Shown piece by piece: positions 12,349 through 64,000 of a stretch of 64,000 bases of DNA. A program made the position numbers and the translations under genes. The notes beneath the pieces were generated by a model, which searched no databases, was not told the DNA's origin, and was given only the letters and a program-made list of their open reading frames with translations. Position 1 is the first letter of the stretch. Every line of letters begins with the position of its first letter. The DNA lies in NCBI GenBank assembly GCA_965215185.1, contig OZ244034.1, positions 3,040,001-3,104,000 of the forward strand, in the 5' to 3' direction. This DNA comes from Acidimicrobiia bacterium (GTDB lineage Bacteria > Actinomycetota > Acidimicrobiia > Spongiisociales > ZC4RG35).

Positions 12349-12374
12349 ATGGACACCAGCTAGGGAGCGACGCT

Positions 12375-13064
12375 ATGACAAGGTTATCCTCGATGGTCGG
12401 TTCAATGGCGGGGCCGGTTTCCCCTGACGACTTGGCAACTTTCCAACGGGCCGGTGTGGCGACGACGGTCGAGTCCCTGGGGGTTCCGCAGGGCTATTAC
12501 CAGATGATGTCCCCGGAGATGGTTCGGCGCACTTCACAGCTGTGTATCGCGGGTCAGGCCGTCACCGTCGCGAATGGTCACAATGACAACCTGATGATGC
12601 ATGTCGCTCTTGAGGTCGCTGGATCGGGCCAGGTGCTCGTGATTACCGGAACCGGTCCGATGGGAGTCTCTTGGGGGGAGATGGTGACTGTGGGCGCTAT
12701 GGCGAAGGGGATCACCGGTGTGATCGTCGATGGTTCGGCGCGCGACGTGGACGGAATCAATCGTCTCGGTTTCCCGGTGTGGGCTACTTCGGTTCGGCCT
12801 TTCGGTGCCGGTAAGGAGGCTATTGGTAGTGTCAATAGGCCGGTGATGTGTGCGGGGGTCCACATGTCACCTGGCGATGTCGTGGTAGCTGATGGTGACG
12901 GGGTGGTGGTCGTGCCGTACGGGCAGGTCGCCGCTGTTGCAGCCGCCGCGTCGGTCCGCACCGAACGCGAGGTTGGTTTACGTTTGGCCGCCGAAGGCGG
13001 GGCCATGCCGGGGAGGGTCGCGGGACATCTCGACGGTATCGACTTCGATATCGGGAGCGGGTAG
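12375..13064 (+). CDS. RraA family / HMG-CHA aldolase-like protein
   Basis: AGQAVTV, DNL, GEM, DGSARDV, GDVVVADGDGVVVVP. Confidence 0.85.
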   Translation: MTRLSSMVGSMAGPVSPDDLATFQRAGVATTVESLGVPQGYYQMMSPEMVRRTSQLCIAGQAVTVANGHNDNLMMHVALEVAGSGQVLVITGTGPMGVSWGEMVTVGAMAKGITGVIVDGSARDVDGINRLGFPVWATSVRPFGAGKEAIGSVNRPVMCAGVHMSPGDVVVADGDGVVVVPYGQVAAVAAAASVRTEREVGLRLAAEGGAMPGRVAGHLDGIDFDIGSG

Positions 13065-13182
13065 CCACCAGGAGGTTTCTCCGGCTCTAATTGCGAGCCC
13101 TTTCTCGGGGGCGGCTGGGGTCGTTTCGGGCTATGGTTGATTCATCGGTTCGGGGATAAACATCCCGGACGAGGAGGATGCT

Positions 13183-15457: not shown

Positions 15458-16328
15458 CCGCTTCCTCAGGGTGGCTAGGACCCGACGAAACAGGTGGTGG
15501 CGGTACCGGCGCCCGGTGATGTCGCGTGACCGGCTCCTCACCGTCGCTCGGATGGTCGCGATTCCTGTCCTTATTGTGGTCGCATGGCAGATCTGGGGCA
15601 CCAGACTTCCGGAGAACAGCAATGTGCCTGTGCCGTCGGAGGTGGTCGAGGGGGCGATCTTTCTGATATCGTCCGGTGATCTCCAACTAGCCGTTTGGAT
15701 CAGCCTCCGGCGTGTGCTCTCAGGGTTCCTGATCGCTCTCGCGATCGGGGTTCCGGTCGGCCTGCTCATGGGGATGTTGCGCCCGGTCGAGCGTAACGCC
15801 GACCCGGTCGTTCACACGTTCCGGATGATCGCGCCCATCGCCCTGGTGCCTCTCGCGATCGTGTGGTTCGGGCCTCGCGGCACCGCCGCCATCTTCATCG
15901 TGGCCTACGGCGCGGTCTTCCCGATCATCCTCAATACCATCAACGGCGTCAAGGAGGTCGACCGGCTGCTTGTCAAGGCCTCCCGTACAATGGGACTCCG
16001 GACCCTCAAGATCCTCAGGAGAGTGATACTGCCCGGTGCCCTGCCGAGTGTCTACACAGGGGTCAGGATCGCCATGGGGATGGCGTGGGGAGCCATCATC
16101 GCTGCCGAGTTGACCGTGGGATTCAAGGCGTACCCATCGGCAGAAGGAGTAGGTCTCCGCAGCGGTGCCGGGGGTGGAATCGGCTTCATGATGTTCTTTC
16201 TCTACGACAACCGGGTCGCCACCGACCTCATCGTTGTCACGATCATCGCGGTCGGCGCTGTGGCCTTTGCCTCCGACCGTGTTCTCAGATACGTCGCACG
16301 AAAGGGAATGCCATGGGCTCGTCTATGA
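15447..16328 (+). CDS. NitT/TauT ABC permease
   Basis: IAPIALVPLAIVWFG, ILPGALP, IAAEL. Confidence 0.88.
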   Translation: MSRDRFLRVARTRRNRWWRYRRPVMSRDRLLTVARMVAIPVLIVVAWQIWGTRLPENSNVPVPSEVVEGAIFLISSGDLQLAVWISLRRVLSGFLIALAIGVPVGLLMGMLRPVERNADPVVHTFRMIAPIALVPLAIVWFGPRGTAAIFIVAYGAVFPIILNTINGVKEVDRLLVKASRTMGLRTLKILRRVILPGALPSVYTGVRIAMGMAWGAIIAAELTVGFKAYPSAEGVGLRSGAGGGIGFMMFFLYDNRVATDLIVVTIIAVGAVAFASDRVLRYVARKGMPWARL

Positions 16329-17140
16329 GCGAAACCGACGCGGTCATCGTTCTCGATGACGTCTCGAAGACCTTTTGGGTGGAGCGAACACGAGAGTCTG
16401 TAAATGCGGTCGAGAGTTGCACGCTCGATGTGAGTCGCGGGGAGTTTTTCACGGTGGTTGGCCCTTCAGGCTGTGGCAAGACCACAATCCTCGGAATGAT
16501 CGCGGGTTTCGAGGCGCCGTCCTCGGGACGGATCACGATGCACGGGGAGACCATTCATACGACGAGCGCCGAACGGGGCATGCTCTTTCAGGAGTACGCG
16601 TTGTTACCTTGGAAGACGGCGAGCGGCAATGTCGAGTTCGGCCTGAAATATGGACCGAAGAAGTACTCTAGGGCGGAACGGGCCGAGATCGTGCAGCGCC
16701 ACATCGATCTCGTTCGCCTGACCGGCTCGGAGAGCAAGTATCCACACGAGCTGTCCGGAGGTATGCGCCAGCGCTGTGCGCTCGCCAGGCTTCTGGCCTA
16801 TGACCCTGAGGTGCTACTGATGGATGAGCCGCTGGCCGCTCTCGACGCGCAAACCCGCCGGGTCTTGCAGGAGGAGTTACTCCGCATCTGGGGCCAGCAG
16901 CGTGAGAAGGGGGATCGCAAGACGATCATCTACGTCACGCACTCCATCGAGGAGGCGGTGTTCCTGTCCGACCGCGTCGGTGTGATGAGCACGTCGCCGG
17001 GGCGGCTGAAGGAGATCGTGGACATCGACATACCCCGGCCACGCACCGAGGAGTCGCGGGGACTACCACGCATCGCCGAACTCGAACATAAGATATGGAA
17101 CCTCATTCGCGAGGATGCCCATAGGGCAGCGCTCGAGTAG
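16325..17140 (+). CDS. NitT/TauT ABC ATP-binding protein
   Basis: GPSGCGKT, LSGGMRQR, LLMDEP, VTHSIEEA. Confidence 0.9.
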   Translation: MSETDAVIVLDDVSKTFWVERTRESVNAVESCTLDVSRGEFFTVVGPSGCGKTTILGMIAGFEAPSSGRITMHGETIHTTSAERGMLFQEYALLPWKTASGNVEFGLKYGPKKYSRAERAEIVQRHIDLVRLTGSESKYPHELSGGMRQRCALARLLAYDPEVLLMDEPLAALDAQTRRVLQEELLRIWGQQREKGDRKTIIYVTHSIEEAVFLSDRVGVMSTSPGRLKEIVDIDIPRPRTEESRGLPRIAELEHKIWNLIREDAHRAALE

Positions 17141-22292: not shown

Positions 22293-23435
22293 ATGAGCAA
22301 GATGCGAGCCGCCGTCTACCACGGCAGGCGCGACATCAGGATCGAGGAGATCGAGGTACCCGAGCCGGGGCCCGGAGAGTTGCTGGTAGAGGTCCACGCC
22401 GCCGGGATCTGCGGCACCGACGCCTCCGAATGGGAACACGGACCGATGATGTTTCCGGTGTCGGTGCGCAACGACTGGTCCGGTCACCGCGGCCCGATGG
22501 TTCCCGGTCACGAGTTCGGCGGCAGGGTGGTGGACCGCGGTCCAGGGGTGGAGGCGTTCCCTGACGGCACGCTGATGGCCAGCGGGGCGGGAGTGTCGTG
22601 CGGATCGTGCGGGCCGTGCCGGGCGGTGATCACCAACTTCTGCGAGCGGTACTTCACGGTGGGCCTGCAGCGGAACGGCGCCCTGGCCCAGTACGTTGCG
22701 GTGCCGGCGGGTATCTGCCTGGACGTTGGCGATCTGGGTCTCGACGATGATCGGGCCGCTCTGGTGCAGCCCATGTCGATCGCCCTCCACTCCCTCCGCC
22801 AGGGAGAGCCGGGTTCCGGTGACCCGGTGGTGGTGCTCGGAGTGGGTGGGGTGGGCGCCTTTCTCGTCTACGCGGCGGTCCGATCGGACCTGCGGGTGCT
22901 GGCCGCCGATCTCGACCCGGAGCGGCTCGAGATCGCCGCCGCGCTGGGCGCTTCGCTCACGCTAAAGGTCGACCGGGACGAACCACTCGCCCCCCAGATA
23001 CGGGATGCCCTGCGCGGCCCTCCCGCGGTGGTCTACGAGGTGACGGGAGTTCCCTCCGTCCTGACCGCGGCGCTGGAGGTGGTGGCGCCACGGGGGCGGG
23101 TGGTGGCCATCGGCCTCGGCACGGTTCCGGTACCGGTCGACGTACGCTCCCTCACCCTGCGGGAACTCTATCTGGTGGGTAGCAACGCCCATGTCTTCGC
23201 GGCCGACTTCGCGGACGCCGCCCGGCTGGTGGCCGGCCGCGCCGAGGGTTGGTCGGATGTCGCGCCGGTGGCCCTGCCCCTCGAGTGGCTGGTCGCCGAC
23301 GGTCTCCGACCGATGGTGGAGCGGAGACCCGAACGGATCAAGACGCTCGTCGACCCGTGGGCGGCCGATGTACGCCCGGCGGCGCGGGCAGGTCTGAGTG
23401 GTCTGTCTGCAAAGAGTGGTCTGTCTGCAGAATAA
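22293..23435 (+). CDS. Zn-dependent alcohol dehydrogenase (butanediol/threonine DH-like)
   Basis: GICGTD, GHEFGG, CxxCxxC...C, GVGGVG. The C-terminus runs into a MITE end. Confidence 0.9.
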   Translation: MSKMRAAVYHGRRDIRIEEIEVPEPGPGELLVEVHAAGICGTDASEWEHGPMMFPVSVRNDWSGHRGPMVPGHEFGGRVVDRGPGVEAFPDGTLMASGAGVSCGSCGPCRAVITNFCERYFTVGLQRNGALAQYVAVPAGICLDVGDLGLDDDRAALVQPMSIALHSLRQGEPGSGDPVVVLGVGGVGAFLVYAAVRSDLRVLAADLDPERLEIAAALGASLTLKVDRDEPLAPQIRDALRGPPAVVYEVTGVPSVLTAALEVVAPRGRVVAIGLGTVPVPVDVRSLTLRELYLVGSNAHVFAADFADAARLVAGRAEGWSDVAPVALPLEWLVADGLRPMVERRPERIKTLVDPWAADVRPAARAGLSGLSAKSGLSAE

Positions 23436-25326
23436 CTTGCCGTGCTCCGCTTTTATACCTCAAAAGCATCCCACCATCCACCGAAATGCCCCCAACATCG
23501 CCACAAACACCAGAAACTAACCGGCCCCACTACCTCCAGTCATCGTCGCCCCCCCCCAACCGATCGGTGGATTCAGGCTAAACGCGCAGAGCCCCCGGAA
23601 CTGCGAATCGCAGCCAATCCGGGGCGTGCTGGCACCAAGGCAAGTCGCCGTCTCAAGTTGACTACACGGAAGATCCCTACAAACTCTTGTGCAACTATAT
23701 AATTTGCTTCTAGCTTCTTCTAGATTAGAACTTGGCTCGGTCCTTGTTGCTTGCCCTGAGCCGCGCGCCAAGGTCGTCGGGAGAGACGAATACTCTTCGC
23801 CGACCCTCCACGCCGGCATCGAGCAGTCCATGGGACGTCAGGTCGAGTAGGTCGGTACGAGCCGTTTGCAGAACTACATCATGGCTGTTGGCGTGGCTCC
23901 GGTATGTGTAGCGATACCCTGGATGCCGTAGGGCGTGTCCGAGGAGAGCCCGTTGTCTGTGGTTGAGCCCGGGCAGATCCCCGGCTAGGCGTTCCGCGGC
24001 CTGCATGCGATCGAGGGTCTCGTCGACGTAGATCGCCAATTCCTCGAAAGCCCTTCTCAAGACCTCGAGTTGGTGGATCAGGAAGTATGTCAGGTCGTTG
24101 CCGTCCGTCTCCGTGTGGAGGAAGGCGTGCGCGTACTTTGCCGGTGCCTTCAGGACGATCTCGGAGATCGAGACATACTCGGTAAGCCAGTATCCGGCGC
24201 GTAGCGCGGACCAGTAGAACAAGGCGCGGGCCGCTCGACCGTTCCCATCGACGAACGGATGAATGTAAGCCAACCAAAAGTGGAGTAGGATGGCCTTGAC
24301 CAGCGGATGGGTGAATGATTTTTCCCCGTCGTTGGCGAAGTTGCACATTCGTTCGATACGCTCCGGGATCTGTTCCGCGGGTGGCGGAGAGAAAACGACC
24401 TCATCACTGTGCCAGGCGACAACAGACACCCTGGTCTCGTCTGGCTGCTGGAAGCGGCCGCAGTCCCTCCGGTGTTCCAAGGTGTCTTCGGTGAGTATGG
24501 CGTGCATTCGCAGGAGTAGTTCCGGCGTCAGGTCCTCTGAGGCCGCTTCCTTGATGTGGCTGATTGCCCGGTAGTTGTTGAAGATCATGCGTTCGGACTT
24601 GTCTCGAGGATCCCGGCCTGACCGGAGCATCTGCTTGGCTACGACACGGGTTGTGGAGGCTCCCTCGAGTTGTGAGGACGACAGGGCTTCCTCGATGAGG
24701 CCTCGCACCTTGTAGCGATCCCGCGTGGTTCGATCCACGACGGCCGCGGGCGCGGCAGACCGGCCGGTAGCCCGAAAGTCCAGGTTGTGGAGGCTCTTGA
24801 GGATCGGGTCCACAAGGCTGTAGGAAAACGGTATCCCGTGTACGTCAACCAATCCGGTAGCCCGGGATGATTGATTGCGGGCGAGGCGCATGCCGGCCCA
24901 CCACTGTTCGACCGTGAGACCCTCGGGGGGCTCCCGCCGGCGTACGTCATCCCAATGGAGGTATCGACCGTCCTTCAAGGTCGCGCCCACGTTGACCAAC
25001 CGCACGAACGTTTCTGGCTCGAGGTCTCTTATCAGAGCGTATAGATCTGGAGGTTTGGCGATCCGCGTAGCCATAGCGTCTCCGTAACCGTGTGTAGTGA
25101 TCGGAAGACCGGTCAAATCCATCTTCTAATCAATACCAGATTAGTACATAAGCCTGGATTGGCTAGGCGTTTGCCCTGGCCGTTAGGGGGACCGGATGGT
25201 TTGGCGACGCCTCTCGTTGCGTTCCGCCTCCTCGATGTACCGCTGGGAGTACGCCTTCGTCGGCGGGCCTTGCAAGGAACGCCGCTGCCGGCGCATGCCA
25301 CGCCGCCATTTCACGGACAGACCACT
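23415..25326. mobile_element. Non-autonomous element (MITE family A ends) enclosing a Fic gene
   Basis: Left end AGTGGTCTGTCTGCAG (also duplicated at 23397), right end ...CACGGACAGACCACT. The same ends occur at 39855-40020 and 41203-41274. Confidence 0.7.
23725..25074 (-). CDS. Fic family protein
   Basis: HPFVDGNGRAAR Fic motif; C-terminal HTH-like TARTDLLDL. Confidence 0.93.
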   Translation of the reverse strand: MATRIAKPPDLYALIRDLEPETFVRLVNVGATLKDGRYLHWDDVRRREPPEGLTVEQWWAGMRLARNQSSRATGLVDVHGIPFSYSLVDPILKSLHNLDFRATGRSAAPAAVVDRTTRDRYKVRGLIEEALSSSQLEGASTTRVVAKQMLRSGRDPRDKSERMIFNNYRAISHIKEAASEDLTPELLLRMHAILTEDTLEHRRDCGRFQQPDETRVSVVAWHSDEVVFSPPPAEQIPERIERMCNFANDGEKSFTHPLVKAILLHFWLAYIHPFVDGNGRAARALFYWSALRAGYWLTEYVSISEIVLKAPAKYAHAFLHTETDGNDLTYFLIHQLEVLRRAFEELAIYVDETLDRMQAAERLAGDLPGLNHRQRALLGHALRHPGYRYTYRSHANSHDVVLQTARTDLLDLTSHGLLDAGVEGRRRVFVSPDDLGARLRASNKDRAKF

Positions 25327-39854: not shown

Positions 39855-40020
39855 GTGATCTGTCTGCAAAATGATCCGGCGTGCCCTGCTCGCCATCGAC
39901 GGCCCTCGGTTGCGTTCCGCCTCCTCGGCGTATGCTACGGGTACGCCTAAGTCAGCGGGCCTTGCGAGGAACTCCGCTGCCGGTGCATGCCACACACCTC
40001 TACTCCACAGACAGACCACT
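39855..40020. mobile_element. MITE family A copy
   Basis: Ends GTGATCTGTCTGCA / CAGACAGACCACT; about 110 bp homologous to 25216-25326. Confidence 0.7.
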
Positions 40021-40127
40021 GCTCCCGGACCGATTGTGCCAGGCGCCGGTGCGGTGCGGGGCCGGGAGATGTACGCGGTTTTCCCCGCCACATTGAAGTG
40101 GAGCCAGTAAATCGGTACGGTGGCGGG

Positions 40128-41204: not shown

Positions 41205-41274
41205 TGGTCTGCCTGTGAAATGGCGTCGTGTCATGGCAAGCAGGGCACGGCAAGTTGTCTTGCATACAGACCAC
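41203..41274. mobile_element. Minimal MITE family A copy (two ends only)
   Basis: AGTGGTCTGCCTGTGAAATGGCG is the reverse complement of the 25326 end; GCACGGCAAGTTGTCTTGCATACAGACCAC is the reverse complement of the 23415 end. Confidence 0.65.
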
Positions 41275-42244: not shown

Positions 42245-42339
42245 GTCCGTTGTCCGTTGTCCGTCGTCCGTCGCTCTTGATGGTATTCGACTACCGAGAC
42301 AGCGTTTTCTAACGATAGGCTACAGGCGGTAGTCGTTTC

Positions 42340-42550
42340 CCTGGCACCTGGCACCTGGCACCTGGCACCTGGCACCTGGCACCTGGCACCTGGCACCTGG
42401 ACACCTGACACCTGCACCTGACACCTGACACCTGACACCTGACACCTGACACCTGACACCTGACACACCTGACCCCGGCCACCTGCACATCCTGGCACCT
42501 CGGCACCTGACACTGGCACCTGGCACCTGACACTGGCACCTGGCACCTGA
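42340..42550. repeat. Heptamer tandem repeat (CCTGGCA/CCTGACA)n
   Basis: About 30 imperfect units between convergent genes; a short GTCCGTT/GTCCGTC run at about 42246-42272. Confidence 0.95.
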
Positions 42551-43361
42551 TCACGGGCGGACAGCCAGTACCTCGCCGTGCAGGAAGGCCCAGAAGCCGT
42601 CGGGTCGGTCGGTCCAGCGCCGGAAGGCGGCGGATATCTCCCCCAGTTCCGCCCGCGTGGCGTACCCGCCCGTGATGGCGTGGTCTGCGAAGTCGCTGTC
42701 GGTGACCCGCACCGCCCATAGCCCGCCCCAGATCGCTCGTTCTTCGGCGTTCCCGTAGGTGGTGGTGCTGCTGGTGACGGTCGGCTCCAGGAATCCGGCC
42801 TCGGTGATCCACGATAGGAGGAAGCGCCCTGCGTCGGCTTCGCCACGATTGGCGGCCGTTACCTGGTGGTAGAGGCGGCGCCAGCGGTGGATGGCCGGTT
42901 CGGTGGGCGCGTGTGGTGCCGTAGTCGGCGTCCCGCACAGCAACCAGCCCTCCCGGCTTGAGGACTCGGCGTGCCTCTCGCAAGGCCCGGACCGGATCGG
43001 CCAGGTGCTGGAGCACCTGGTGGGCGTAGACCACGTCGAAGGTGCCGTCTTCCCAGGGCAGGTCGTAGGCGGAGCCGACCTCGAAGGTCGCGTTGGTGAT
43101 TCCGTGCCTCGCTACCCGGCTTCGGGCCGCCTCCACCATCTCGGCGGACGTGTCCAGGCCCTTTACCCGACCGGCGTAGCGGGCTAGGCCGGTGGTGATC
43201 GTGCCCGGTCCGGATCCCACGTCGAGCAGTACCGTGTCGGGTCGCAGGCGGGGCAGCAGGAAGGCGGCGCACTCCTCGGCCGTGCGCCGCCGGTAGTACC
43301 CGACGATGGCCTCGTGGTACCCGTGCGTGTATCGCTCTCCGTCAGGCCGTTCCAGCGTCAT
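42551..43361 (-). pseudogene. SAM-dependent methyltransferase, frameshifted near 42915
   Basis: LLDVGSGPG, FDVVYAHQVLQH, LKPGG. After RDADYGT the frame shifts, and the C-terminal part (HAPTEPAIHRW...HGEVLA) lies in ORF 42551-42943. Confidence 0.8.
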
Positions 43362-44043: not shown

Positions 44044-44117
44044 GGGCCCGTAGCTCAAGTGGTCAGAGCAGCGGACTCATAATCCGTTGGTTGCAGGTTC
44101 GAGTCCTGCCGGGCCCA
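44044..44117 (+). tRNA. tRNA with CAT anticodon, most likely tRNA-Ile2 (lysidine)
   Basis: Acceptor stem GGGCCCG/CGGGCCC, anticodon arm GCGGA-CTCATAA-TCCGT, T-loop GTTCGAGTC. Resembles Ile2 rather than fMet (no GGG/CCC anticodon stem). Confidence 0.92.
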
Positions 44118-44331
44118 CAGCGGGGTCTTCGCGTGTTGGGCCTGTGTTAGTTCGCGGGTTAGGGGTGTTGGTGGGGGTTCTGGCCTGTTTTCGGGGTGTT
44201 CGGGTGTGTTTGGCCGGTGTTCGGGGGTGTGTGGCGGTGGTTGCGGGTGGTGTTGGCCGCGACGGCCGGTTCTGGACGCGTTTGGTTTGACGGGTGGGGT
44301 TCCCGTCAGCGGGGAGCGGTAGGGGGTTGGT

Positions 44332-54032: not shown

Positions 54033-54420
54033 GTGGTTGAGCAGAACGCTCGGCGGGCCGTGCAACCACCGCAACCGCGCCACCCGCGCCGCCGCGCCGC
54101 CGCCCGCCGAGGAGCGGCCGAAGTGCTAGCAGCCAACGCGGCCGCAGTCATCGACGCTCTACCCCAAGTCTTTATCGACACCGACCGCGAGGTCCGACAG
54201 CAAGCCGCGCGAGCGCTCCTAAACGTCGACCAAGTCGCAGCATCGGACCTCCAAGGCCCTGTTGGCGCCTTCGTACAGAGCCCAGCCTTCCCAGACCACA
54301 TGGAGTTCCTCTTCCGAGGACTCGCACAGATATCTTCACGCTTACCACCAAACACCATTGATGCGTGCGAGCAGGCCGTCGCTACAGCTGGTGAAGAACT
54401 CACAGACATAGTGGCTCCTT
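54033..54420 (+). pseudogene. HEAT-repeat-like protein fragment
   Basis: RRGAAEVLA...DTDREVRQQAARAL; cut off by the CRISPR leader module. Confidence 0.4.
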
Positions 54421-54493
54421 GCGCATCTATCCTTCAGTACTGGCAATGGCCGATTGCTATGTAGCTAGACGCGTTCGAGCGTCTAGCCTAAGG

Positions 54494-54530
54494 GTCGTAG
54501 CCGGGGTTGACTCCCGGCGCTCATTGAGGG
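54494..54530 (+). CRISPR. Solitary CRISPR repeat with the same leader and trailer as the 58149 array
   Basis: GTCGTAGCCGGGGTTGACTCCCGGCGCTCATTGAGGG, identical to the first repeat of the array. Confidence 0.85.
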
Positions 54531-55503
54531 GGATACCGAGAGGGAACTTGAGGTCCCCTCGTTTACTGCTTGAAGTCCTACCCGGGACTCCCCCGGCTAA
54601 GTGCCTGGTAGGGGGTGATGAAGTGCCCGCACCGACGGCCTCGTCCGTGGGCAGCGCCCCCCCATCTCGAGGTGTCGTCCTGCCCAGTTCGGAGGGGACG
54701 TCGTCCCCAGGCTCATATTGAACTGCCTGGTGGGGGGTGGTCGCGAAGACCCCACGGCGGGGTCTTCGCGTGTTGTGGGGTGTTGAGTTCGCGGGTTAGG
54801 GGGTTTGGGTGGTTTTAGGGGCTCCTACTGTCGCCGCTCTGGGACAACCTCCGTCGCGGATGGCATGACCAGGCCGCCGGTGGCTGGGGTAGCGCAGCCC
54901 CCACGTTTCGTGGAACGCGTGCTGGAACTCGACGACGGGGCCGTCACCTGCTGGGGTCGGAACCATCCGCGGTGGGGTTCCCGAATCGCAGCGAGATGGG
55001 TTTCTATCGCATATAACTGGCTTAGATACTTCGATCCCGACGGGGGCTCCTGGAGCGCGCTCCCCCAGGTTTGTGCGGGTCGGGGGGGTCACCATCCGCA
55101 GCTACCGCCGGAGTCGGAGTCGGGAAGCGGAGGCGACCATTGGTCCGCGCTCCGGCTACTTCTGGTACGGCGACGACAGCAATCCCCGCTGTCGCGCATA
55201 GCTCGACCAGTCTGGGTTGCCAAACAGTGGGGATCGCCCACTCGCGTGAGTCCGCCCACCTGCCTCAGGACCTCCCTGAACCCTTTGGCGGAGTGGACTG
55301 TCCCGTCAGGCCTGCCACCTTACCGAGATGCTCGGTGGCCACGCTCAGCGGTGGGGGGTATGGAGGTTCCCAGCACGACGGCATGGAAGCGGAGTTGCGC
55401 TCCGGTGAGAGGCTTGGAGAGGTTACCAACGCAAACCCGCTCACCACCCTCGAGTGCAGACCGCGTCTAGGTGGACAGACGACCGGGGATCACTCCCCGG
55501 TGT

Positions 55504-55755
55504 CGAGACCTGCCAGCAGTTGGTTTATCCTCCCGTTCAGTCAATCAGGTAGTCATCTCCCCATCGCCTCAGAGGCGACTGGCATGGTCAACTCCTAGCG
55601 GAGCACGCCCGCACTTCGTCAACCGTGGCGAGACCTGCCAGCAGTTGGTTTATCCTCCCGTTCAGTCAATCAGGTAGTCATCTCCCCATCGCCTCAGAGG
55701 CGACTGGCATGGTCAACTCCTAGCGGAGCACGCCCGCACTTCGTCAACCGTGGCG
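55504..55755. repeat. 125-bp tandem duplication
   Basis: CGAGACCTGCCAGCAG... starts at both 55504 and 55629. Confidence 0.95.
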
Positions 55756-56088
55756 TGGCGGGCTCTGCAGTGTCCGCACTTGATACGAGTTACGGCCTCC
55801 GGGGGAACGGCTGCGACTCTCTCCGGGGTTGGGTGGGCTACTTGGGGTAACCCATAGGTACTGATAGTAGTTGGCACAGGCTCCACGTCCTAGAGACAAT
55901 GGGGTTGCTCCAGCGGGCCTTCTGCCGTTTCTTGGGTCCTGATGGTGTCTGTCTCTTTCCTGCTGACCTCCCACCCAACCGGGGGTAGGAGCTCAAGTAG
56001 CAAGCAGGCGGGGACGACCTCAAGTTCCCTCTCGGTTGATGAGCAGCCGAGATGCCGGTCAAGGTCACCTGGGGGACTTGAACTACCA

Positions 56089-56928
56089 TCAGGGTCCCCA
56101 TTCCTGCTTCTCGATGCCGACGACCCTGGGGACATCGTGTTCGTCTAGCTCTAGGAACACGACCCAGGCGGTCCAGTCGAAACCGCTGTACTCATCTTTG
56201 TCACCTGGATCGTATATGACGACCCAAGGAAAGCTACCGCACTCTTGGGGGAGGTAGATGTAGCCGGGCCTTGGCAGACCCCGCATTGGCACCTGGACGT
56301 CGGGATCGCGGTAGTCGGATAGGAATTCGGTAGCGACCTCCTGCAGCGTCGCGGTTACAAGTTCCTCGTCGTTGCCATCGGCTACAAACCCCCAGTTGTA
56401 CCTTGTACCCGCATGGAGGTCGGGTTCCACACGAACCCATTTTCTGTAGAGGACGACATATAGACCCCGCCAGCAGCTGACCGTCTCGGCCAAACCTATC
56501 CCGGTCGTAAGGCCTGCCGCGAACCTGTCGAGCGCTGCGCGCCAACTCCACTCCATTAGCATTTCGGACGCGCACCACTGCTCGGTGACATAGCGTCCGT
56601 GAACCCACCCGGTTGCATACCCAGTATTGATCTCGTACCACGGACTCCCGTCAATGATGGCCGTCTGCCCTGTCGGGATGAGGTCGGTCTGGCCACTGTA
56701 CAGCGCCTCGAGGATTGGAGAGTCGACACCCGGGTTCTCTCGCAGGTTCAGCAAATCGTCATAGGATACCAACACCACCTGCATGGTTCTCTGGGTGGCG
56801 GCGCCTTCCGTCGTCGGCCCTCGCCGCCGCCGGTGGGCCAATGCCGGTCCGTGGCGAAACGGTTTACAGGCTGAAGGACCGATACACACGCTGGGTTGGG
56901 GGAGGGGGGAGCGGTCAGGCGTTATCAC
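56089..56928 (-). CDS. Bacterial SH3-domain protein
   Basis: LNLRENPG...I...W.EI....TGWVHGRYV; the true start may lie further in. Confidence 0.65.
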   Translation of the reverse strand: MITPDRSPLPQPSVCIGPSACKPFRHGPALAHRRRRGPTTEGAATQRTMQVVLVSYDDLLNLRENPGVDSPILEALYSGQTDLIPTGQTAIIDGSPWYEINTGYATGWVHGRYVTEQWCASEMLMEWSWRAALDRFAAGLTTGIGLAETVSCWRGLYVVLYRKWVRVEPDLHAGTRYNWGFVADGNDEELVTATLQEVATEFLSDYRDPDVQVPMRGLPRPGYIYLPQECGSFPWVVIYDPGDKDEYSGFDWTAWVVFLELDEHDVPRVVGIEKQEWGP

Positions 56929-57413
56929 TCCCCTAGAGCAGCAGCGGGGGCCTCAGCCCCGCTAGGAGATATGCGCTGTTCGGTCGGCCCATAAGCAATA
57001 GCCCCGGGCCGTAAAGCTACCCCCGAAGGGCAGTCCCACGACCAGTCCCAACGGTAGCCTTCCGAGAACAGCCTCTCCCAAGGGTCAAGGATGAGCACAT
57101 CCCAGTCGGCGGCCACCTGTTCCCAGTCCGGGAACGGCAACATCAGGCCGGGCGGAATCGCATAGCGTGACGAGAAGCGGTTGAACTCGCGGGAGCGGTT
57201 GTCCAAGACAAGAACCCTGGCCGAGGGGTCGAGTATCACGGGTCTTCGCCATCTCACTCCGTCTAGGAAGACGCTTCCGCTGCGGCACCAACGTTCCCAC
57301 GCGTCGCCGACGGATAGCCAAACGCCCACTGGTTTGGTAGGACTCCGCCTTCGGGTGGGCCACCGAGGGATCTCCGGAGACGGTGAGTACTTGTATAGAA
57401 CGGGGACCGTCAT
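56925..57413 (-). CDS. Hypothetical Trp-rich protein
   Basis: KPVGVWLS...W..WC; coupled to both neighbours by 4-bp overlaps. Confidence 0.6.
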   Translation of the reverse strand: MTVPVLYKYSPSPEIPRWPTRRRSPTKPVGVWLSVGDAWERWCRSGSVFLDGVRWRRPVILDPSARVLVLDNRSREFNRFSSRYAIPPGLMLPFPDWEQVAADWDVLILDPWERLFSEGYRWDWSWDCPSGVALRPGAIAYGPTEQRISPSGAEAPAAALGE

Positions 57414-57874
57414 AGCGCTGTCCATACCCGCCACGCACACCGTATCACGTCGTTGACGATCAGCACCACGGCATCAATAGCGTCGGGATTGTACTTGTGT
57501 GATGTGACATGTCGATCAATAACCCAGGTTTCCAGGTCGTCCCGATCGCTGGGACCGATCAGGCCCTCATCGGCCGCCCGGCGCACAACCCAGTTGAAAT
57601 TGGAGCCGATGCGCACTGGGCAGCCCCGTGCCATGAGTGCTTCTTCCAACACAGCGTGGACGCTCGATATGACAGCCTCGAAGCGTTGCACCAAAGCATC
57701 GTGGTAGACGCTTAACTCCGAATCGGACCGGTCCGCTCCGCGGCCATCCACCAACCGCGCTGCGTACTCCAAATCGTGGAGAAAGCCTTCCAACATACTC
57801 TTGTTGTTGTCCACAAGCGCCAGCCCCCCGGCGGCTATCACCACCAGCATACCCCCTCCTTCAGGCGGGCGCAC
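57410..57874 (-). CDS. HEPN protein (HI0074-like nucleotidyltransferase substrate-binding family)
   Basis: DALVQRFE, R.A...GLI, DRHVTSHKY (Rx4H). Confidence 0.8.
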   Translation of the reverse strand: MRPPEGGGMLVVIAAGGLALVDNNKSMLEGFLHDLEYAARLVDGRGADRSDSELSVYHDALVQRFEAVISSVHAVLEEALMARGCPVRIGSNFNWVVRRAADEGLIGPSDRDDLETWVIDRHVTSHKYNPDAIDAVVLIVNDVIRCAWRVWTAL

Positions 57875-58064
57875 CCGGCAGCCCCCGTGTGGAGGCTGAC
57901 AGCTAGAGGGCCAATCAGGCCGGAGCGTGCTGCTGGTGCTCGGATGCCAGCCTGGTAGAATGAAATAGCCCTCCAGTGCTGTTCTGGGTGGAAGTCGCTA
58001 CCTGCGGCGGCCCGGCAAACCCCGTTGCGAACCGTCGGTGATTCCACTGGGAGCACCCTTGACC

Positions 58065-58148
58065 AGTGGTTCCTTGCTCATCTATCCTTCAGTATTGGCA
58101 ATGGCCGATTGCGATGTAGCTAGACGCGTTCGAGCGCCTATCCTAAGG
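58065..58148 (+). promoter_or_regulatory. Putative CRISPR leader
   Basis: Relatively AT-rich; conserved with 54410-54493 directly upstream of the first repeat. Confidence 0.6.
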
Positions 58149-58407
58149 GTCGTAGCCGGGGTTGACTCCCGGCGCTCATTGAGGGAGGTCTGTGCTGTCT
58201 GTTGACCAAGTAAGCAGGGCAGGTCGTAGTCGGGGTTGACTCCCGGCGCTCATTGAGGGTCCTGCGACCTGGTTGTCGGCGACGCCAAGTGGTTCGTCGT
58301 AGTCGGGGTTGACTCCCGGCGCTCATTGAAGGGTCGAGCTCAAGAGAAAGGGCCGCTACGGCACGCTTGAGTCGTAGTCGGGGTTGACTCCCGGCGCTCA
58401 TTGAGGG
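58149..58407 (+). CRISPR. CRISPR mini-array, 4 repeats (37 bp) and 3 spacers (37, 36, 38 bp); no cas genes in the window
   Basis: Repeats at 58149, 58223, 58296 and 58371: GTCGTAG(C/T)CGGGGTTGACTCCCGGCGCTCATTGA(G/A)GG. The palindromic core and ATTGAGG end are reminiscent of type I-G (I-U). Confidence 0.93.
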
Positions 58408-58845
58408 GGATAGCGAGAGGGAATTTGAGGTCCCCCCGTTTACTGCTTGGAGTCCTACCCGGACTCCCCCGGCTAAGTGCGTGGTCGGGGGGTGATGAAG
58501 TGCTTGCCCCGACGGCCTCGTCCGTGGGCAGCGCCCCCCATCTCGAGGTGACGTCCTGCCTAGTTCGGAGGTGACGTCGTCCCTAGACTTATATTGAACT
58601 GCCTGGTGGGGGGTGGTCGCGAAGACCCCACAGCGGGGTCTTCGCGTGTTACGGGGTGCTGAGTTCGCGGGTTAGGGCTGTTGGCGGGGGTTCTGGCCTG
58701 TTTCAGGGGTGTTCGGGTGTGTTTGGCCGGGGCGTGGGGGTGTGTGGCTGTGGTTACGGGGGTATGGCGGCCGCGACGGTTGGTTCTGGACGCGGTTGAT
58801 TGGACGGGGTGGGTTCCCGTCAAAGATGAGCGGTAGGGGGTTGGT

Positions 58846-60630
58846 TTATGGGGGTGCGCGGGTGGGTGTGGACTGGCCTGGGCGTTGGGTTGGTGAGGCT
58901 GCGGTGGTGTCGGGGGTTGCCTGGTCGGCGCGGGCTGGGGTGCTTGGGTTGTCCTTCTCGGGGTTTTGGGTTCTTCCGGTTTGTTCGAGGTTGTGGATGA
59001 CGGCGGCGGCGAGAGCGGCGAGTGTGTGGGGGGCGAGGCCGAACGCGCGGCAGGAGTCCTTCTCGAAGCTGCCGTCGTCTTTGATCATGCCGTTGACGCC
59101 TTCGACGGGGTTGCGGCCGGCGTAGTCGGTTGCCCATTTGGTGGTGCCGTAGGCGTTGCGTTGGTGGTTGTCGAGTTGGTCGACACCGATGGTGATCATG
59201 CCGTCGCAGCAGTATTTGGTGTCGGCGACGGCGGTGACGGGCAGGGGGGTGCGGCGTTTGCCGCGGTTGGCCCGGTTGCTGCGGGTTCGGGCTGTGCTTT
59301 TGACTTTGCCTGCGCATTGGGGGCACATGATCTTCTTCCGCCCGTTGGGGAAGTGTTCGATGACTACCCATTGGTATTTGGCTCGTTCGTCGAACCATTT
59401 TTGGCGGTCGGTTCCGGTCAGCCCGTCGAGTGGGCGGAGTAGGTGTTCTGGTGTCCATTCGACGAGGATGGTGCCGCAGTTCACAAGGAGGGGGGTGTTG
59501 TCTCCGCCTGCGGTGATGAGCTTGATGCCTTCCTGTCTGTCTTTGGCCTGGTTCATTACGATGTCCCAGCCGTGTTCATGTAGGGGCCGGACGAAGGTCG
59601 TTTTCTTCGCGGTGTAGTGCTGGTCGGCTTTCACGACTTTGACGCTGGGTGCTAGCTGTTTCGCTTTGGTGGCTACCTCATATCCGATGGGTCCGACGTG
59701 TTGGTCGGCGGCTGCGAGGACCATGGCGACGATGTACGGGGGGACAGGCTGCTGCCATTTGCCCCGGATGAAGGCGCGTATTGCGACGGCTAGATGAGCG
59801 AAGTAGCCGTTGAACGCCCCGGCTGGGTGTTTCGACGTTGCGCTGCGGCGGCCGGTGCCGTCTTCGTCGTCCTTGGTGCGTTGGATCTTGCCGTTGGGTT
59901 TGAGGATGGTTCCTAGGGGTATGCGGCCGGCGTTGATCTCTGACTGGGGTGTGAAGTCGGTGGTGCGTGCCCAGGTTTGGTAGTCGGTGGCGTCGAGGGC
60001 GATCTCGGTGACGTTGCGGATGGCCCGTTTGGGAATCGACGGCGCGAGGAAGCGGTCGACCATCCATTGCTGTTCGATATGGATACCGCTGGGGGTGGTC
60101 GCTTCCTTCGTCAGGAAGCGTTCGATGCGTTGGGCCTGACGCCAGACCATGTTGTAGGACAGCAGCGAGTCGCCGCTGTCGGGATCCAGCAGACCCCATT
60201 TAATAGCGACCGCGGCGTCGAGGCCCGAGAGGACTTCGCACAACACGGTCCGCTTGTAGCTGCCTTGGTGCTGGGCGGCGAGGAGTATGGCTGTGAGGAT
60301 CATCCGGGTAGATAGCACGGGCTGTTCCCCCGGATGGGCACGCAGCACTTCGTCTATGCGCTTGCAGACTCCGGTGTTGCCCGCGTACTGATACATGCGC
60401 CGGGCGTCGGCCTCGTTCGTGAGTATCGGTCCCCGGCGGCGGAGTCCCTCCTCGGCGGTATCCCCCCAGATGTGGGCACCCGACCGACCTGTTTCGTGGT
60501 CGTCGGCGCTGGGATGGTCTCTGGGCAGCATCCGCTGAGCGTTCAGCTCGTACAGGCGGGCAGGGTCCGGCAGGCCCCGGGCGGCGCAACGATCGCGGCG
60601 GCGGCGGGCAGCACGGGCCGGGCTGCTCAC
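58846..60630 (-). CDS. DDE transposase-like protein (intact paralog)
   Basis: IALDATD, KADQHY, YAGRNPVEGVNGMIK, CPQC...CC. Confidence 0.8.
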   Translation of the reverse strand: MSSPARAARRRRDRCAARGLPDPARLYELNAQRMLPRDHPSADDHETGRSGAHIWGDTAEEGLRRRGPILTNEADARRMYQYAGNTGVCKRIDEVLRAHPGEQPVLSTRMILTAILLAAQHQGSYKRTVLCEVLSGLDAAVAIKWGLLDPDSGDSLLSYNMVWRQAQRIERFLTKEATTPSGIHIEQQWMVDRFLAPSIPKRAIRNVTEIALDATDYQTWARTTDFTPQSEINAGRIPLGTILKPNGKIQRTKDDEDGTGRRSATSKHPAGAFNGYFAHLAVAIRAFIRGKWQQPVPPYIVAMVLAAADQHVGPIGYEVATKAKQLAPSVKVVKADQHYTAKKTTFVRPLHEHGWDIVMNQAKDRQEGIKLITAGGDNTPLLVNCGTILVEWTPEHLLRPLDGLTGTDRQKWFDERAKYQWVVIEHFPNGRKKIMCPQCAGKVKSTARTRSNRANRGKRRTPLPVTAVADTKYCCDGMITIGVDQLDNHQRNAYGTTKWATDYAGRNPVEGVNGMIKDDGSFEKDSCRAFGLAPHTLAALAAAVIHNLEQTGRTQNPEKDNPSTPARADQATPDTTAASPTQRPGQSTPTRAPP

Positions 60631-61292
60631 GCTCTCAACCCTTCGAGGGCGGCTTCTACCGGGTCGCGACCGGTAGCAGAGGCGGCCAGCAGCGCGGTGA
60701 GGGTGTCACCCGACAGCGGACCGGCGATCCGGCGGAGCGCGGACAGGGGAGTGGCGGCGTGTAGGTGGGCGACCAGCCAGGTGGAACGGGCACGCCGCAC
60801 TGAAAGGGTACGGCCACTGATCCCGACCTGGCGGCACAACATGTACACCGCTGTGCGATGCGTGGCCCGAACGAAGCGACCGGTACCTACTAACCCTGCG
60901 GCTTCGGTGACCAGGGGGCTGTAGTCGGCTCGGATGGGGACCACACGCGGATGCCTGCCCCCGACCCGTATACCGAGCCGGTCGTTTCCGAGGTTGACCA
61001 GATCGCCGGGCTCGGCTGCTGCGACCGCCGGGCTAAGCAGACCAGCCCCGAGGGTGGCGGCGACCACCCACCGTCGGCCTGCGGGCTCCGCCCGGGCCGG
61101 CAGGCAAGCCGACAGTCGGAACGCTGCTTCGTCTCCCGGCCCATACGGGCCGGACGGGGGTCTGCGCCCGATCGGTTCCCCAACAGGGGCCTTGGCCCAG
61201 CCGTCCGCGAACACAGCCCGCCCCACCCGGCGTAGAAGCCACCTCGTGTGGCGGCGCCACACCAGACTCCTATGAGCGTTCGCTTCTAAAGC
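60627..61292 (-). pseudogene. Tyrosine-recombinase-like gene interrupted by ISL3
   Basis: Homology to E1 continues to 61292 and stops at GGCTCTTCG. Confidence 0.8.
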
Positions 61293-62724
61293 GGCTCTTC
61301 GGAAATGAGGGGGGAGTAGGGGGTCGGCTAGGTGGTGCCGTAATCCACCAGAAGTGATGGGGGGTCCTCCATAATCGGATGGTTGGTAACAGACATCCGA
61401 GGCAGGAGGACCCCTGTGGAAGCTGATCCTACGCGCATGTGCGAGAAGTTGGTAGGCCTGGGCGAGGTTGATCTGGTCGGGATCAACGACTTGGGCGAGG
61501 AGGCACCTTTGGAGGTGGTGATCGGGTCCCGCAAGGCCCGGCCGGTGTGTGAGGGCTGTGGCGGCCCTGTGTGGTCGAAAGGCTATCGGAGTGTGGTGTT
61601 GGTGGATTTACCGGCGTTCGGACGGCCTGTGCGGCTGCGGTGGAGGAAACGGCGCTGGACGTGTCCGAACTCGGGGTGTGAGATCAGGTCGTTCATCGAA
61701 CAAGACCCCAAGATTGGTCCCGAACGGGCGTTGTTGACATCGAGAGCGGCTCGGTGGGTGACCATCGGGGTGGGTGGGCGGGGCCGTTCGGTCGACGAGG
61801 TCGCCGCGGAGTTGGGTTGTGATTGGCATACGGTGAACAACGAGGTCGTCCGTTGGGGCGAAGCGCTGCTGGGGGCCGACACCGATCGGATAGGCGAGGT
61901 CGGAGCTGTGGGCATCGACAAGAAGCGTTGTTGGGGCGGAAAGGCCGGTGGCGCACCAAGGTTTGGTGCACTTCTGTCGTCGATGTGGGAGGCCACCAGC
62001 CGGTTCGACATAGTCGGTGGTAGAACGGCTGATAGCGCGGTGTCGTGGTTCCGATCCCAGCCCCCCGAGTGGCTCGACGGGATCCGCTGGGCGGTGTCGG
62101 GTCATGTCAGGGCCTTATCGGAAGGCGTACGACCGGGTGTTGCCGAACGCTGTGCAGGTAGCGGACCCGTTCGGTGTCATCCGCTTGGCCAACCAGCGTC
62201 TCGACGACCTACGACGAAGAGTCCAAAACGAAACCCTCGGGCATCGAGGACGCAAGGATGACCCGCTGTATCGGATACGGCGGCTCCTCACCGCCGCTTC
62301 CGAGAGGATCAGCGACCGCGGTCAAACACGGCTGCGTGGTCTCCTCGACGCTGGTGACCCCCACAGCGAAGTCCGCACCGCCTGGCACGCGAAGGAAACG
62401 GTCCGAGGCATCTACGGGGTCGACAGTCCCGCCCTCGCTCTCCGATACACCGTCGGGCTCGCGGACGACCTCCAGGACGAATCCTGCCCACCCGAGATCA
62501 ACAAGTTGGGTCGTACCATCGCCCGCTGGACCCCCCAGATCACCAACTGGCACATCTCGAAGGTAACCAACAGATGCCACCGAAGCCCTCAACAACCTCA
62601 TCAAGCGGATCAAACGAGCAGCGTTCGGGTTACCCAACTTCGCGAACTACCGAATCCGGGCACTTCTCTACGCGGGGAAACCCAACTGGGACCTCCTGGC
62701 CACCGTCACTCCCCACTGAAATCC
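61293..62724 (+). mobile_element. ISL3 family IS with a multiply frameshifted transposase (about 61383-62719)
   Basis: Left IR GGCTCTTCGGAAATGAG; CxxC...DLP.FGRPV.L.W.KRRW.C, GID, QVADPF, EALNNLIKRIKR..FG..NF.NYR spread over three frames. Confidence 0.9.
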
Positions 62725-62954
62725 ACTCATACTTGGAGGGTTCCTGGGCTGGGACGGGTCTGACCCAACTGAAATCTGGCCTTGTGCCTTTTCATCGATC
62801 TGTCGGCCCGTTCCCGGCCTGGGGCGTGACCCCGTGACCCGGGGCGGATGTGACCTAATAGGAGCCTTCAACTTCTCCACCGTGAGTGGCCTGTCCAACC
62901 GCACACGGGTCCGGGATCAGGAAGTGAGTCTATCCCCTAGAGGAGAAGAGCATC
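62725..62954 (+). ncRNA. Putative IS110 bridge RNA region (left non-coding end)
   Basis: 230-bp non-coding end with stem-loops; ACTGAAATC (62768) matches the target flank, and TGAGTGG (62883) is complementary to the element end. Confidence 0.6.
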
Positions 62955-64000
62955 ATGGGAGAAGCAGACCAGATTATCTACGGTGGGGTTGACACCCATC
63001 GGGACGTCCACGTAGCAGCGGTGGTGGATGGCGTCGGGCGGGTACTGGGATCGGAGTCTTTCGCGGTGGAGGAATCCGGTTATCGGCGAATGGTCACCTG
63101 GTTCGAGTCGCGGGGACAGTTGGTTCGGGTTGGGGTGGAAGGAACGGGTAGTTACGGCGCCGGCCTGGCCCGTTACCTGACCGAGATGAACATCGAGGTG
63201 GTGGAGGTCAACCGCCCCAACCGCCAACTACGCCGCCAGAAGGGCGGCAAGACCGACAGCGTCGACGCCGAGGCGGCAGCTCGGGCAGCTGCCTCGGGCG
63301 AAGCAACCGCGGTTCCCAAGTCCGGTGTGGGCCCGGTCGAGTGCATACGGATGCTGTGGGTGGTGCGCCGCTCCGCGGTCAAGGCCCGCACCCAGGCCGC
63401 TAACCAGATACATGCGCTGGTCGTAACAGCTCCCGAGCCGCTAAAACACCAGCTAAAGGGCATGAATCTCAAAGCACGGGTCAAAACCTGTGCCCGGTTC
63501 CGACCCGGCACAGACCACACCACCACCGCGTATGCGAAGCGTGCCCTACAGCATTTGGCCCGCCGGTATCAGGCTCTCGACGTAGAGATCGCCCAACTCG
63601 AAGCCGAGATCCGGCGTCTCTGCGCCCAGGCCAACCCGGCCCTGCTGGCCACAGAAGGTGTCGGTCCTGACACAGCCGCCGCGTTGTTGGTCGCCGCCGG
63701 CGACAACCCCAAGCGAATGAAATCGGAACGGTCTTTCGCGGCGCTGTGCGGCGCCAGCCCCGTCCAGGCGTCATCAGGACGAACCCTTCGGCATCGTCTC
63801 AACCGGGGCGGCAACCGCCAAGCCAACAACGCGCTATGGCGGATCGCTACCACCCGGATGCGCACCGACGCCGCCACCAAAGCCTACGTGGCACGACGCA
63901 AGGCCGAGGGCAAGAAGAAAAAGGAGATCATCCGCTGCCTCAAGCGGCACATCGCCCGAGAAATCTACCGGCTCCTCACCAACCCGCACCCAACCCCGAA
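62955..64000 (+). CDS. IS110 family recombinase (runs off the window)
   Basis: Manual translation: MGEADQIIYGGVDTHRDVH..., VGVEGTGSYGAGL, GKTDSVDA, SPVQASSG, RLNRGGNRQAN, RCLKR. Confidence 0.93.
   Translation, partial: MGEADQIIYGGVDTHRDVHVAAVVDGVGRVLGSESFAVEESGYRRMVTWFESRGQLVRVGVEGTGSYGAGLARYLTEMNIEVVEVNRPNRQLRRQKGGKTDSVDAEAAARAAASGEATAVPKSGVGPVECIRMLWVVRRSAVKARTQAANQIHALVVTAPEPLKHQLKGMNLKARVKTCARFRPGTDHTTTAYAKRALQHLARRYQALDVEIAQLEAEIRRLCAQANPALLATEGVGPDTAAALLVAAGDNPKRMKSERSFAALCGASPVQASSGRTLRHRLNRGGNRQANNALWRIATTRMRTDAATKAYVARRKAEGKKKKEIIRCLKRHIAREIYRLLTNPHPTP

Follow-up and report, generated by a model that had tools for sequence, protein, structure and literature searches.

An orphan type I-G-family CRISPR cassette carried as cargo of a tRNA-targeting DDE transposon in an acidimicrobial bacterium

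Introduction

What does a CRISPR array do inside a transposon if the genome around it offers no Cas protein to serve it? This question is raised by a 64,000-nt stretch of DNA from an Acidimicrobiia bacterium (GenBank assembly GCA_965215185.1, contig OZ244034.1, positions 3,040,001 to 3,104,000; hereafter the window, to whose numbering plain positions refer). Here, a transposon unit that we call E4 bears, next to its right end, a leader followed by four CRISPR repeats and three spacers. The source genome (G000) is a single 3.12-Mb contig and 95% complete; further G-numbers denote related genomes, and all of them, including G000, are metagenome assemblies. A reading made from the letters of the window alone (the sequence-only reading) had described this locus as a mini-array lacking cas genes that would borrow a type I-G-like system of its host and attack competitors. 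We find robust evidence that the locus is a real CRISPR cassette of the type I-G family, that it is cargo of the transposon and that it is an orphan in its present host.

Structure of the CRISPR array in E4

The array spans positions 58149–58407 on the forward strand and consists of four direct repeats of 37 nt and three spacers, with distances of 74, 73 and 75 nt from one repeat start to the next. Repeat 1 (58149–58185; GTCGTAGCCGGGGTTGACTCCCGGCGCTCATTGAGGG) is followed by spacer S1 (58186–58222, 37 nt), repeat 2 (58223–58259), spacer S2 (58260–58295, 36 nt; in frame SCDLVVGDAKWF), repeat 3 (58296–58332), spacer S3 (58333–58370, 38 nt) and repeat 4 (58371–58407). The repeats conform to the 37-nt consensus GTCGTAG[C/T]CGGGGTTGACTCCCGGCGCTCATTGA[G/A]GG and vary at two sites only, position 8, which is a C in repeat 1 and a T in repeats 2 to 4, and position 35, where repeat 3 has an A. 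The spacers share no mutual similarity. With repeats that differ by no more than 2 nt, this arrangement shows the generic hallmarks of a CRISPR array, namely three or more near-identical, regularly spaced repeats of 23–50 nt and unique spacers of similar length. Tandem Repeats Finder made no call over the array, as expected because the spacers are unique.

From the end of the last repeat to the outer end of the right inverted repeat of E4 we measured 222 nt. The sequence-only reading had placed a leader, four repeats and three distinct spacers about 220 bp inside this end, and its coordinates proved right.

The leader (58010–58148, plus strand) is conserved over this length with the related genome G492 and, from 58065 to 58148, also with the neighboring unit E3. 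These last 84 nt have a G+C content of 51%, compared with 62% for the whole of E4. A promoter-like TTGACC-18 nt-TATCCT element is located at 58059–58088 on the plus strand. It is the sole sigma-70-like site in the interval 57800–58800, in which shuffled sequences let expect 0.1, and it is a consensus match only. The region ahead of repeat 1 has thus the higher A+T content and the promoter-like site of a CRISPR leader, with the promoter being a prediction.

Downstream of the array follows a cassette-specific trailer of 136 nt (58408–58543, plus strand), which is found in E3, E4 and G492 only. It contains a strong hairpin at approximately 58466–58491 and is not a repeat. A degenerate terminal repeat that we considered after position 58451 was rejected, as its local score of 17 (shuffles 14.4 ± 2.4) was equalled by 163 of 1000 shuffles. 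Next to the trailer lies the generic right end of 86 nt (58544–58629, plus strand) with subterminal direct repeats at 58545–58563 and 58568–58586 and the terminal inverted repeat (TIR) CGCGAAGACCCC at 58618–58629. These last 86 nt of E4 are common to many cassette-free ends in G000 and related genomes, whereas the preceding 136 nt are specific for the cassette.

Searches of Rfam yielded neither the CRISPR-DR families nor any other family at gathering score over the whole window, and at E ≤ 10 the segment 58050–58640 gave three chance matches to small nucleolar or long non-coding RNAs only. No RNA datasets are listed over 57800–58700. Contigs of one public run (X19) cover 58017–58131 and 58149–58252; the RNA nature of X19 is a guess, and these contigs have no bearing on expression. 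Parts of the array, with identical spacers, are also present in contigs of public runs that come from at least two studies. These contigs are interrupted at the repeats, and spacers other than S1 to S3 could not be read from them.

Assignment of the repeat to type I-G

Cas1 was detected in 12 of the 20 related genomes searched, mostly beside I-G-like arrays, and we read the arrays beside eight of these Cas1-bearing loci. The nearest repeat, GTCTCGCCGGGGTTGCAACCCCGGCCTTCGTTGAGGG, belongs to the congeneric genome G336 and agrees with the E4 repeat in 30 of 38 aligned columns (79%), including the stem and the final TTGAGGG. The six other repeats of relatives have at most 24 columns in common with it. 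In G336, the array follows genes for Csb1/Cas7g, Csb2, Cas3g, a Cas3-extension protein, Cas4, Cas1 and Cas2. A search for Cas8g (TIGR04113) upstream of the G336 csb1 gene gave no match, but the control search matched nowhere either.

The E4 repeat is predicted to fold into a stem of 7 bp with a loop of 5 nt (positions 7–25), followed by 12 unpaired nucleotides that comprise GCUC and the 8-nt AUUGAGGG. In a type I-G system, Csb2 cleaves the repeat at a distance of 4 nt on the 3′ side of the hairpin base, so that a handle of 8 nt remains (PMC9638904). As the predicted stem ends at position 25, a cut 4 nt further on would leave exactly 8 nt, ATTGAGGG, fitting the geometry of Csb2 (PMC9638904). 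Resemblance to the G336 repeat and the arrangement of hairpin, gap and handle together make membership of the type I-G family a well-supported assignment, with processing being predicted.

Leader and trailer had no blastn similarity to the I-G loci of relatives, including that of G336. A leader motif that appeared to be common with I-G loci in an alignment was too weak to use. Two observations concern the G336 locus itself (G336:C1:1000001-1020000). Its Cas4 and Cas1 are encoded by separate genes, whereas most relatives have fused frames of ~550 amino acids, and next to its array lies a segment of 75 nt (L079:7722-7796) with an 85% match to G000:1094417-1094490.

Search for a Cas partner in the carrying genomes

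None of the 76 open reading frames (ORFs) of the window matched a PADLOC cas model at E ≤ 1e-4, and the 33 ORFs between 44 and 64 kb had no match to a Cas family in Pfam, which bears out the earlier statement that the window holds no cas gene. The sequence-only reading had further proposed to find the cas locus of the host, and G000 turned out to have none. Cas1, Csb2, Csb1 and RAMP models had 0 matches each in G000, and for Cas3g nothing but generic helicase matches was obtained, none above the cut-off. Likewise, tblastn with the seven G336 Cas proteins found nothing in G000 at E ≤ 1e-3, and the position syntenic to the cas island of G336 is occupied by other DNA. The repeat occurs at five sites only in G000, four in E4 and one in E3. 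There are no other CRISPR arrays in this genome; two other regularly spaced repeats are coding repeats.

The second genome that carries the cassette, G492, yielded no Cas1, Cas3g, Csb1, Csb2 or RAMP either. Conversely, G336, which alone has a cognate repeat, contains neither a cassette copy nor a transposon end, and of the transposase family it shows no more than weak fragments. In no genome examined did we see the cassette together with a usable Cas system. Of the earlier proposal that a transposon-borne array uses a I-G-like system of the host, the location on a transposon and the I-G-like character therefore stand, while the host genes are missing in G000 and G492.

The cassette is cargo of a tRNA-targeting transposon

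E4 belongs to a stack of eight tandem TIR-bounded units of one DDE transposase family (G000:C1:3084122-3113454 in the whole-genome view), inserted at the 3′ end of the tRNA-Met(CAT) gene (44044–44118, plus strand). The first left end starts at position 44122 of the window, and the stack runs beyond the window end, where it closes with ACAGC before the unique flank. The boundaries of the units are formed by the 12-bp inverted repeat GGGGTCTTCGCG / CGCGAAGACCCC, and units are joined by five bases of the ACAGC type. The junction ACAGC at 58630–58634 between the right end of E4 and the left end of E5 consists of the same 5 nt that are found after the tRNA gene and at the end of the stack.

With its 3871 nt (54759–58629, plus strand), E4 comprises a left-end stub, cargo and the CRISPR cassette, which adjoins the right end. 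It has no transposase gene, and its cargo consists of an SH3-domain ORF and a HEPN-like NTase_sub_bind ORF on the minus strand. In E1, E3 and E5, a protein of 594–596 amino acids, shortened in E3, adjoins the left end and is preceded by a 317-aa ORF belonging to no family. The larger protein has a weak match to DDE_Tnp_1_6 (PF13751) only; its homolog in G492 matches the IS1182-family model NF033551 weakly (E 1.6e-5). The cargo of the stack in G000 includes genes of toxin-antitoxin or defense type (DUF2442, DUF433, HEPN-like). In G492, transposons of the same family are stacked behind both tRNA-Met and tRNA-Arg, with an MmeI-type enzyme and Fic among the cargo.

Two units show internal rearrangements. 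Within E4, a non-coding unit of 125 nt is duplicated in tandem with 99% identity (55500–55749). E5 is interrupted by an ISL3-family transposase gene (61383–62763, apparently divided between two frames) and an IS110-family transposase gene (62955–63998), and these insertions truncate its counterpart of the 317-aa ORF to 211 amino acids (60627–61262).

Sister copies and movement of the cassette

We identified three copies of the cassette, in E4, in E3 and in the element at tRNA-Arg of G492, all located 222–223 nt from the element end and distributed over two different tRNA sites. The sister cassette of E3 (54410–54753, plus strand) is composed of a leader (54410–54493), a single repeat (54494–54530), a trailer (54531–54667) and the right end (54668–54753). 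Its repeat is identical to repeat 1 of E4 in 37 of 37 positions, whereas the flanking parts differ by 7–9%, with 78/84 identical positions in the leader, 126/138 in the trailer and 80/86 in the right end.

The cassette of G492 likewise has a single repeat (G492:C1:4181511-4181547; L037:11511-11547) with one mismatch, at the right end of the stack behind tRNA-Arg(CCT). The flanks of this stack are unlike G000, and its left part is an intact counterpart of E3 with 92–97% nucleotide identity. This combination of foreign flanks with an E3-like body indicates that the cassette is tied to a single transposon lineage, with which it moves.

As there is no supported fifth repeat after the start of the trailer, E3 and G492 carry a solitary repeat. 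Both solitary repeats have the C at position 8, as in repeat 1 of E4, and not the T of repeats 2 to 4. The simplest reading is that the one-repeat form arose by the collapse of a longer array through recombination between repeats.

A further fragment, paralogous to the first ~50 nt of the trailer, lies inside E4 on the minus strand (55983–56036), with no recognizable repeat beside it. The similarity extends over 54 columns with a score of 52, compared with 17.9 ± 2.3 for shuffles. Since the similarity begins 4 nt downstream of the repeat, the fragment resembles a copy rather than a target. We had also considered the trailer as a crRNA-like regulatory guide and rejected this, since the 21 nt at 56016–56036 that the E3 trailer matches exactly belong to this same paralogue.

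The tRNA-Met locus of G492 (G492:C1:1655001-1695000) stands apart. Compared with G000:C1:3077559-3118655, its flanks are 94.7% (9.5 kb) and 99.5% (8.6 kb) identical and its E1 is 99.9% identical, yet it lacks E3 to E5, has an extra unit of 15 kb, and G492 is placed in another family. This region may represent a chimeric assembly or misjoin, a large recent transfer or a second haplotype. We did not count this locus as independent; the tRNA-Arg copy, with its unrelated flanks, is independent.

Distribution of cassette and transposase

When up to 3 mismatches were allowed, G000 was the only one among 401 genomes of the class to contain the full repeat. In a search of 401 genomes of the order, cassette DNA turned up in two, G000 and G492, and the other matches listed were short S2-like or chance matches. 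The genome G402, flagged as unpublished, is used for none of our conclusions. The transposase family is itself rare; one search gave 26 proteins, and another placed the family in 17 of the 401 genomes of the order, two of which (G000 and G492) have the cassette. A pattern of the 24 conserved repeat positions retrieved two records from species genomes, with 1 and 14 matches, and no cases beyond G492 and G336. The same pattern gave 0 matches in JGI metagenomes and 0 in IMG/VR, and the exact 25-nt core of the repeat gave 0 in JGI metagenomes.

Origin of the spacers

Spacer S2 resembles genes for C5-cytosine methylases (PF00145), with 33/36 identical positions in G448 and 30–31/36 in G437 and G639. 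Many of the mismatches fall on third codon positions. In G448 and G437 the matching methylase gene adjoins a gene for a Vsr endonuclease, and in G448 both form an islet between secG and pgk. A homolog of this methylase was found neither in G000 nor, as a close viral relative, in IMG/VR. The match of 33/36 suggests that S2 is of foreign origin and derives from a Dcm-type methylase gene family without a homolog in G000. The four S2-like sites are flanked 5′ by TAT or TAC; as homologs, they are not the true protospacer.

For S1, there was no match in the genomes of relatives, the host genome or the transposon family. S3 had a partial match (21/22) in G441 only, which is unconvincing. Blastn of the segment 58065–58629 against plasmids and phages gave no match, and none of the spacers matched the G000 genome, the tRNA-Met and tRNA-Arg sites, the transposon family or related loci. 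The proposed attack on competitors rests on the resemblance of S2 to a methylase gene of a restriction-modification islet, with no matches to phages, plasmids or the transposon family.

Further repeats and duplications in the window

Some repetitive features lie outside the transposon stack. Upstream of tRNA-Met, in or beside an ORF on the minus strand (42309–43361), ~30 copies of a 7-nt unit (CCTGGCA / CCTGACA) extend over 42326–42533. Two 37-nt inverted repeats (23416–23452 and 41238–41274) are 84% complementary and 17.8 kb apart, with a related arm at 40001–40033. They may be the ends of another large mobile element, and a SoFic-like gene (23725–25122) lies just inside. The regions 1678–3451 and 11214–13316, ~9.6–9.9 kb apart, are 85–91% identical over ~1.7 kb in pieces; they represent a duplicated gene block, with mad3-like ATPase ORFs at 7138–9271 and 15863–17140.

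Discussion

We consider it probable that the cassette is currently idle, having been built in an earlier host with a I-G system and carried along since, that it is shrinking in its sister copies and that it is usable only in trans after transfer. The spacers would have been acquired in that earlier host with the help of I-G adaptation proteins. As cargo, the cassette has its fixed place immediately inside the generic right end of 86 nt, in a single lineage of DDE transposons that target the 3′ ends of tRNA genes and pile up in tandem. Since the time of that earlier host it would have travelled with the transposon arm, and recombination between repeats may have reduced two of the three intact copies to one repeat. 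Because the present host has no Cas protein, at most an unprocessed transcript is expected there. After transfer to a compatible I-G cell, published I-G biochemistry predicts that Csb2 would cut 4 nt past the hairpin, leaving the 8-nt AUUGAGGG handle, and that guides S1 to S3 would be loaded into the Cascade complex of that cell.

Several points weigh against an idle cassette. It looks undecayed, with four repeats that differ by no more than 2 nt, and the promoter-like site is retained. The E3 repeat is unchanged in 37 of 37 positions next to diverged flanks; if repeat and flanks changed equally fast, the chance of this would be ~5%, which hints that the repeat is under selection. The frequency of Cas1 among relatives, mostly with I-G-like arrays, implies that compatible hosts may be common in the community, and the pieces with identical spacers in runs of at least two studies imply that the array is stably kept. 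Moreover, both cassette genomes are metagenome assemblies, and a cas locus may reside on an unassembled plasmid.

These points would fit a domesticated I-G leader-repeat cassette that serves a tRNA-targeting DDE transposon as a portable RNA tool, acting as a guide array or as a one-repeat decoy in I-G hosts. We regard such a use as possible but doubtful. If it were so, the cas-less genomes would simply be the easiest place to observe the cassette, a notion that we hold just as tentatively.

In a narrower version, which follows the sequence-only reading, the mini-array would be kept as an active weapon of the transposon, whose guides direct the Cascade and Cas3 proteins of I-G hosts against competing mobile DNA, the cas-less hosts being incidental. 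Intact repeats, the promoter-like site of the leader and the I-G geometry agree with such a function, as does the probable derivation of S2 from the methylase genes found in restriction-modification islets, since such islets are mobile as well. Potential partners exist, given the 12 of 20 relatives with Cas1, and neighboring cargo of the transposon family consists of defense and toxin-antitoxin genes (MmeI-type enzyme, Fic, DUF433, HEPN-like). The same logic is established for viral mini-arrays (PMC11656645). Those of the portogloboviruses SPV1 and SPV2 and of phages (PMC11656645) are, like the E4 array, short, provided with a leader, located on a mobile element, devoid of cas genes and dependent on Cas proteins of the host. 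In E4, however, the carrier is the arm of a DDE transposon and not a virus, there are three spacers instead of one or two, and they match no relatives of the carrier. Furthermore, the E4 repeats are identical to no host CRISPR, unlike those of viral mini-arrays, because the host has none; among the traits of a mini-array that borrows host Cas, carriage by a mobile element is present and a match to the CRISPR-Cas system of the carrying host is absent. Neither of the two cassette genomes has cas genes, while G336, which does, has neither cassette nor transposon end. No spacer matches phages, plasmids, the transposon family or related loci, and two of the three cassette copies are free of spacers. 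The flanks of the S2-like sites, TAT and TAC, also deviate from TTN, the type I-G protospacer adjacent motif on the 5′ side of the protospacer (PMC9638904), a comparison that concerns homologs of the true protospacer. Overall, an active weapon appears rather unlikely.

An RNA anti-CRISPR decoy would be another use. Here, the promoter-driven solitary repeat of E3 and G492, or perhaps even the complete array, would give rise to a transcript that mimics repeats, occupies the Csb2 and Cas7 proteins of an I-G host and thereby shields the incoming transposon or its vector. The copies in E3 and G492 invite this idea, as they consist of one repeat behind a conserved leader, with no cas genes. They would qualify as candidate solitary repeat units, which were selected for resembling CRISPR repeats and for having a promoter no more than 250 bp away (PMC10651486). 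Like the Racr units (PMC10651486), they follow a promoter-like site and reside on a mobile element, apart from any cas genes. Compared with these, the carrying genomes have no cognate Cas, no anti-CRISPR genes were recognized nearby, the sister copy in E4 is a true array, and type I-G is mentioned 0 times in the main text of PMC10651486; a decoy activity of E3 and G492 is putative. The carrying hosts have no I-G system to inhibit, and in E4 the repeats are accompanied by real spacers, each of them unique. When 255 spacers from eight arrays in related genomes were compared with the transposon stack, no target emerged, and the best matches were 16–21 nt long. The common local I-G repeat is never solitary in G437, G458 and G494, where 101 of 101 matches lie inside the main arrays. 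We therefore judge a decoy to be improbable.

The cassette might instead be the leftover, in place, of a decayed chromosomal or transposon-borne cas locus and might never have moved as a unit. As the array of G336 immediately follows cas2 and closes its locus, a cas operon carried as cargo would indeed leave its array beside the right end. Against this stand the three copies, which keep the same distance to the element end in two tRNA sites and two genome contexts, the dissimilarity of leader and trailer to the G336 locus, and the other DNA that G000 has at the position syntenic to the cas island of G336. Moreover, tblastn revealed no cas remnant in either tRNA stack even at E ≤ 0.1. The sequence-only reading had named an unexpressed remnant of a full cas locus in relatives as the finding that would overturn it. 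In situ, such a remnant did not come to light, as the cassette moves with the transposon and the stacks contain no cas pseudogene, and we consider this origin very improbable.

Finally, the array near the right end and the insertion beside tRNA genes could speak for a guide for RNA-directed transposition, as in several CRISPR-associated transposons (PMC11656645), which include the Tn7-like types I-F3, I-B, I-D and V-K. Such a guide is hardly credible and was already deemed unsupported in the sequence-only reading, because the transposase is a divergent DDE protein with a weak IS1182-like tail, TnsB, TnsC, TniQ, a Cas effector or other cas gene and a homing guide are all missing, six of the eight tandem units in G000 use the same site with the same ACAGC-type junctions without a cassette, and neither spacers nor trailer match the tRNA-Met and tRNA-Arg sites.

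Among known systems, the idle cassette that we favor is most simply compared with orphan CRISPR arrays, with which it shares a genome without any cas gene and a spacer of probably foreign origin. In contrast to a stationary chromosomal relic, the E4 array sits at a fixed offset in a TIR-bounded transposon and is copied with it. With the type I-G systems of Thioalkalivibrio sulfidiphilus (PMC9638904) and the G336 locus it has in common the repeat of 36–37 nt and, by prediction, the succession of hairpin, 4-nt gap and 8-nt handle; unlike these, the E4 cassette has no protein component. The review PMC11656645 lists viral mini-arrays, single-repeat RNA anti-CRISPRs, plasmid-borne type IV and V-M systems and Tn7- and Mu-like CRISPR-associated transposons. 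A cas-less array in an ordinary DDE transposon appears neither in the passages of it that we consulted nor in the literature that we searched, which is no proof of its absence from print.

The locus thus adds a plain DDE transposon to the carriers of cas-less arrays and single repeats, which so far comprised viruses, plasmids and Tn7-like elements. The natural series of one cassette with four repeats, with one repeat and as a trailer fragment shows how an array shrinks once it is parted from Cas. As matters stand, the cassette is mainly a well-documented orphan. If it were active in I-G hosts, transposons that build defense islands at tRNA genes would also move immune memory or anti-immune decoys between bacteria. 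Should the cassette indeed serve as a portable RNA tool, it would provide the first case of a cas-less CRISPR module with a functional link to a transposon other than Tn7.

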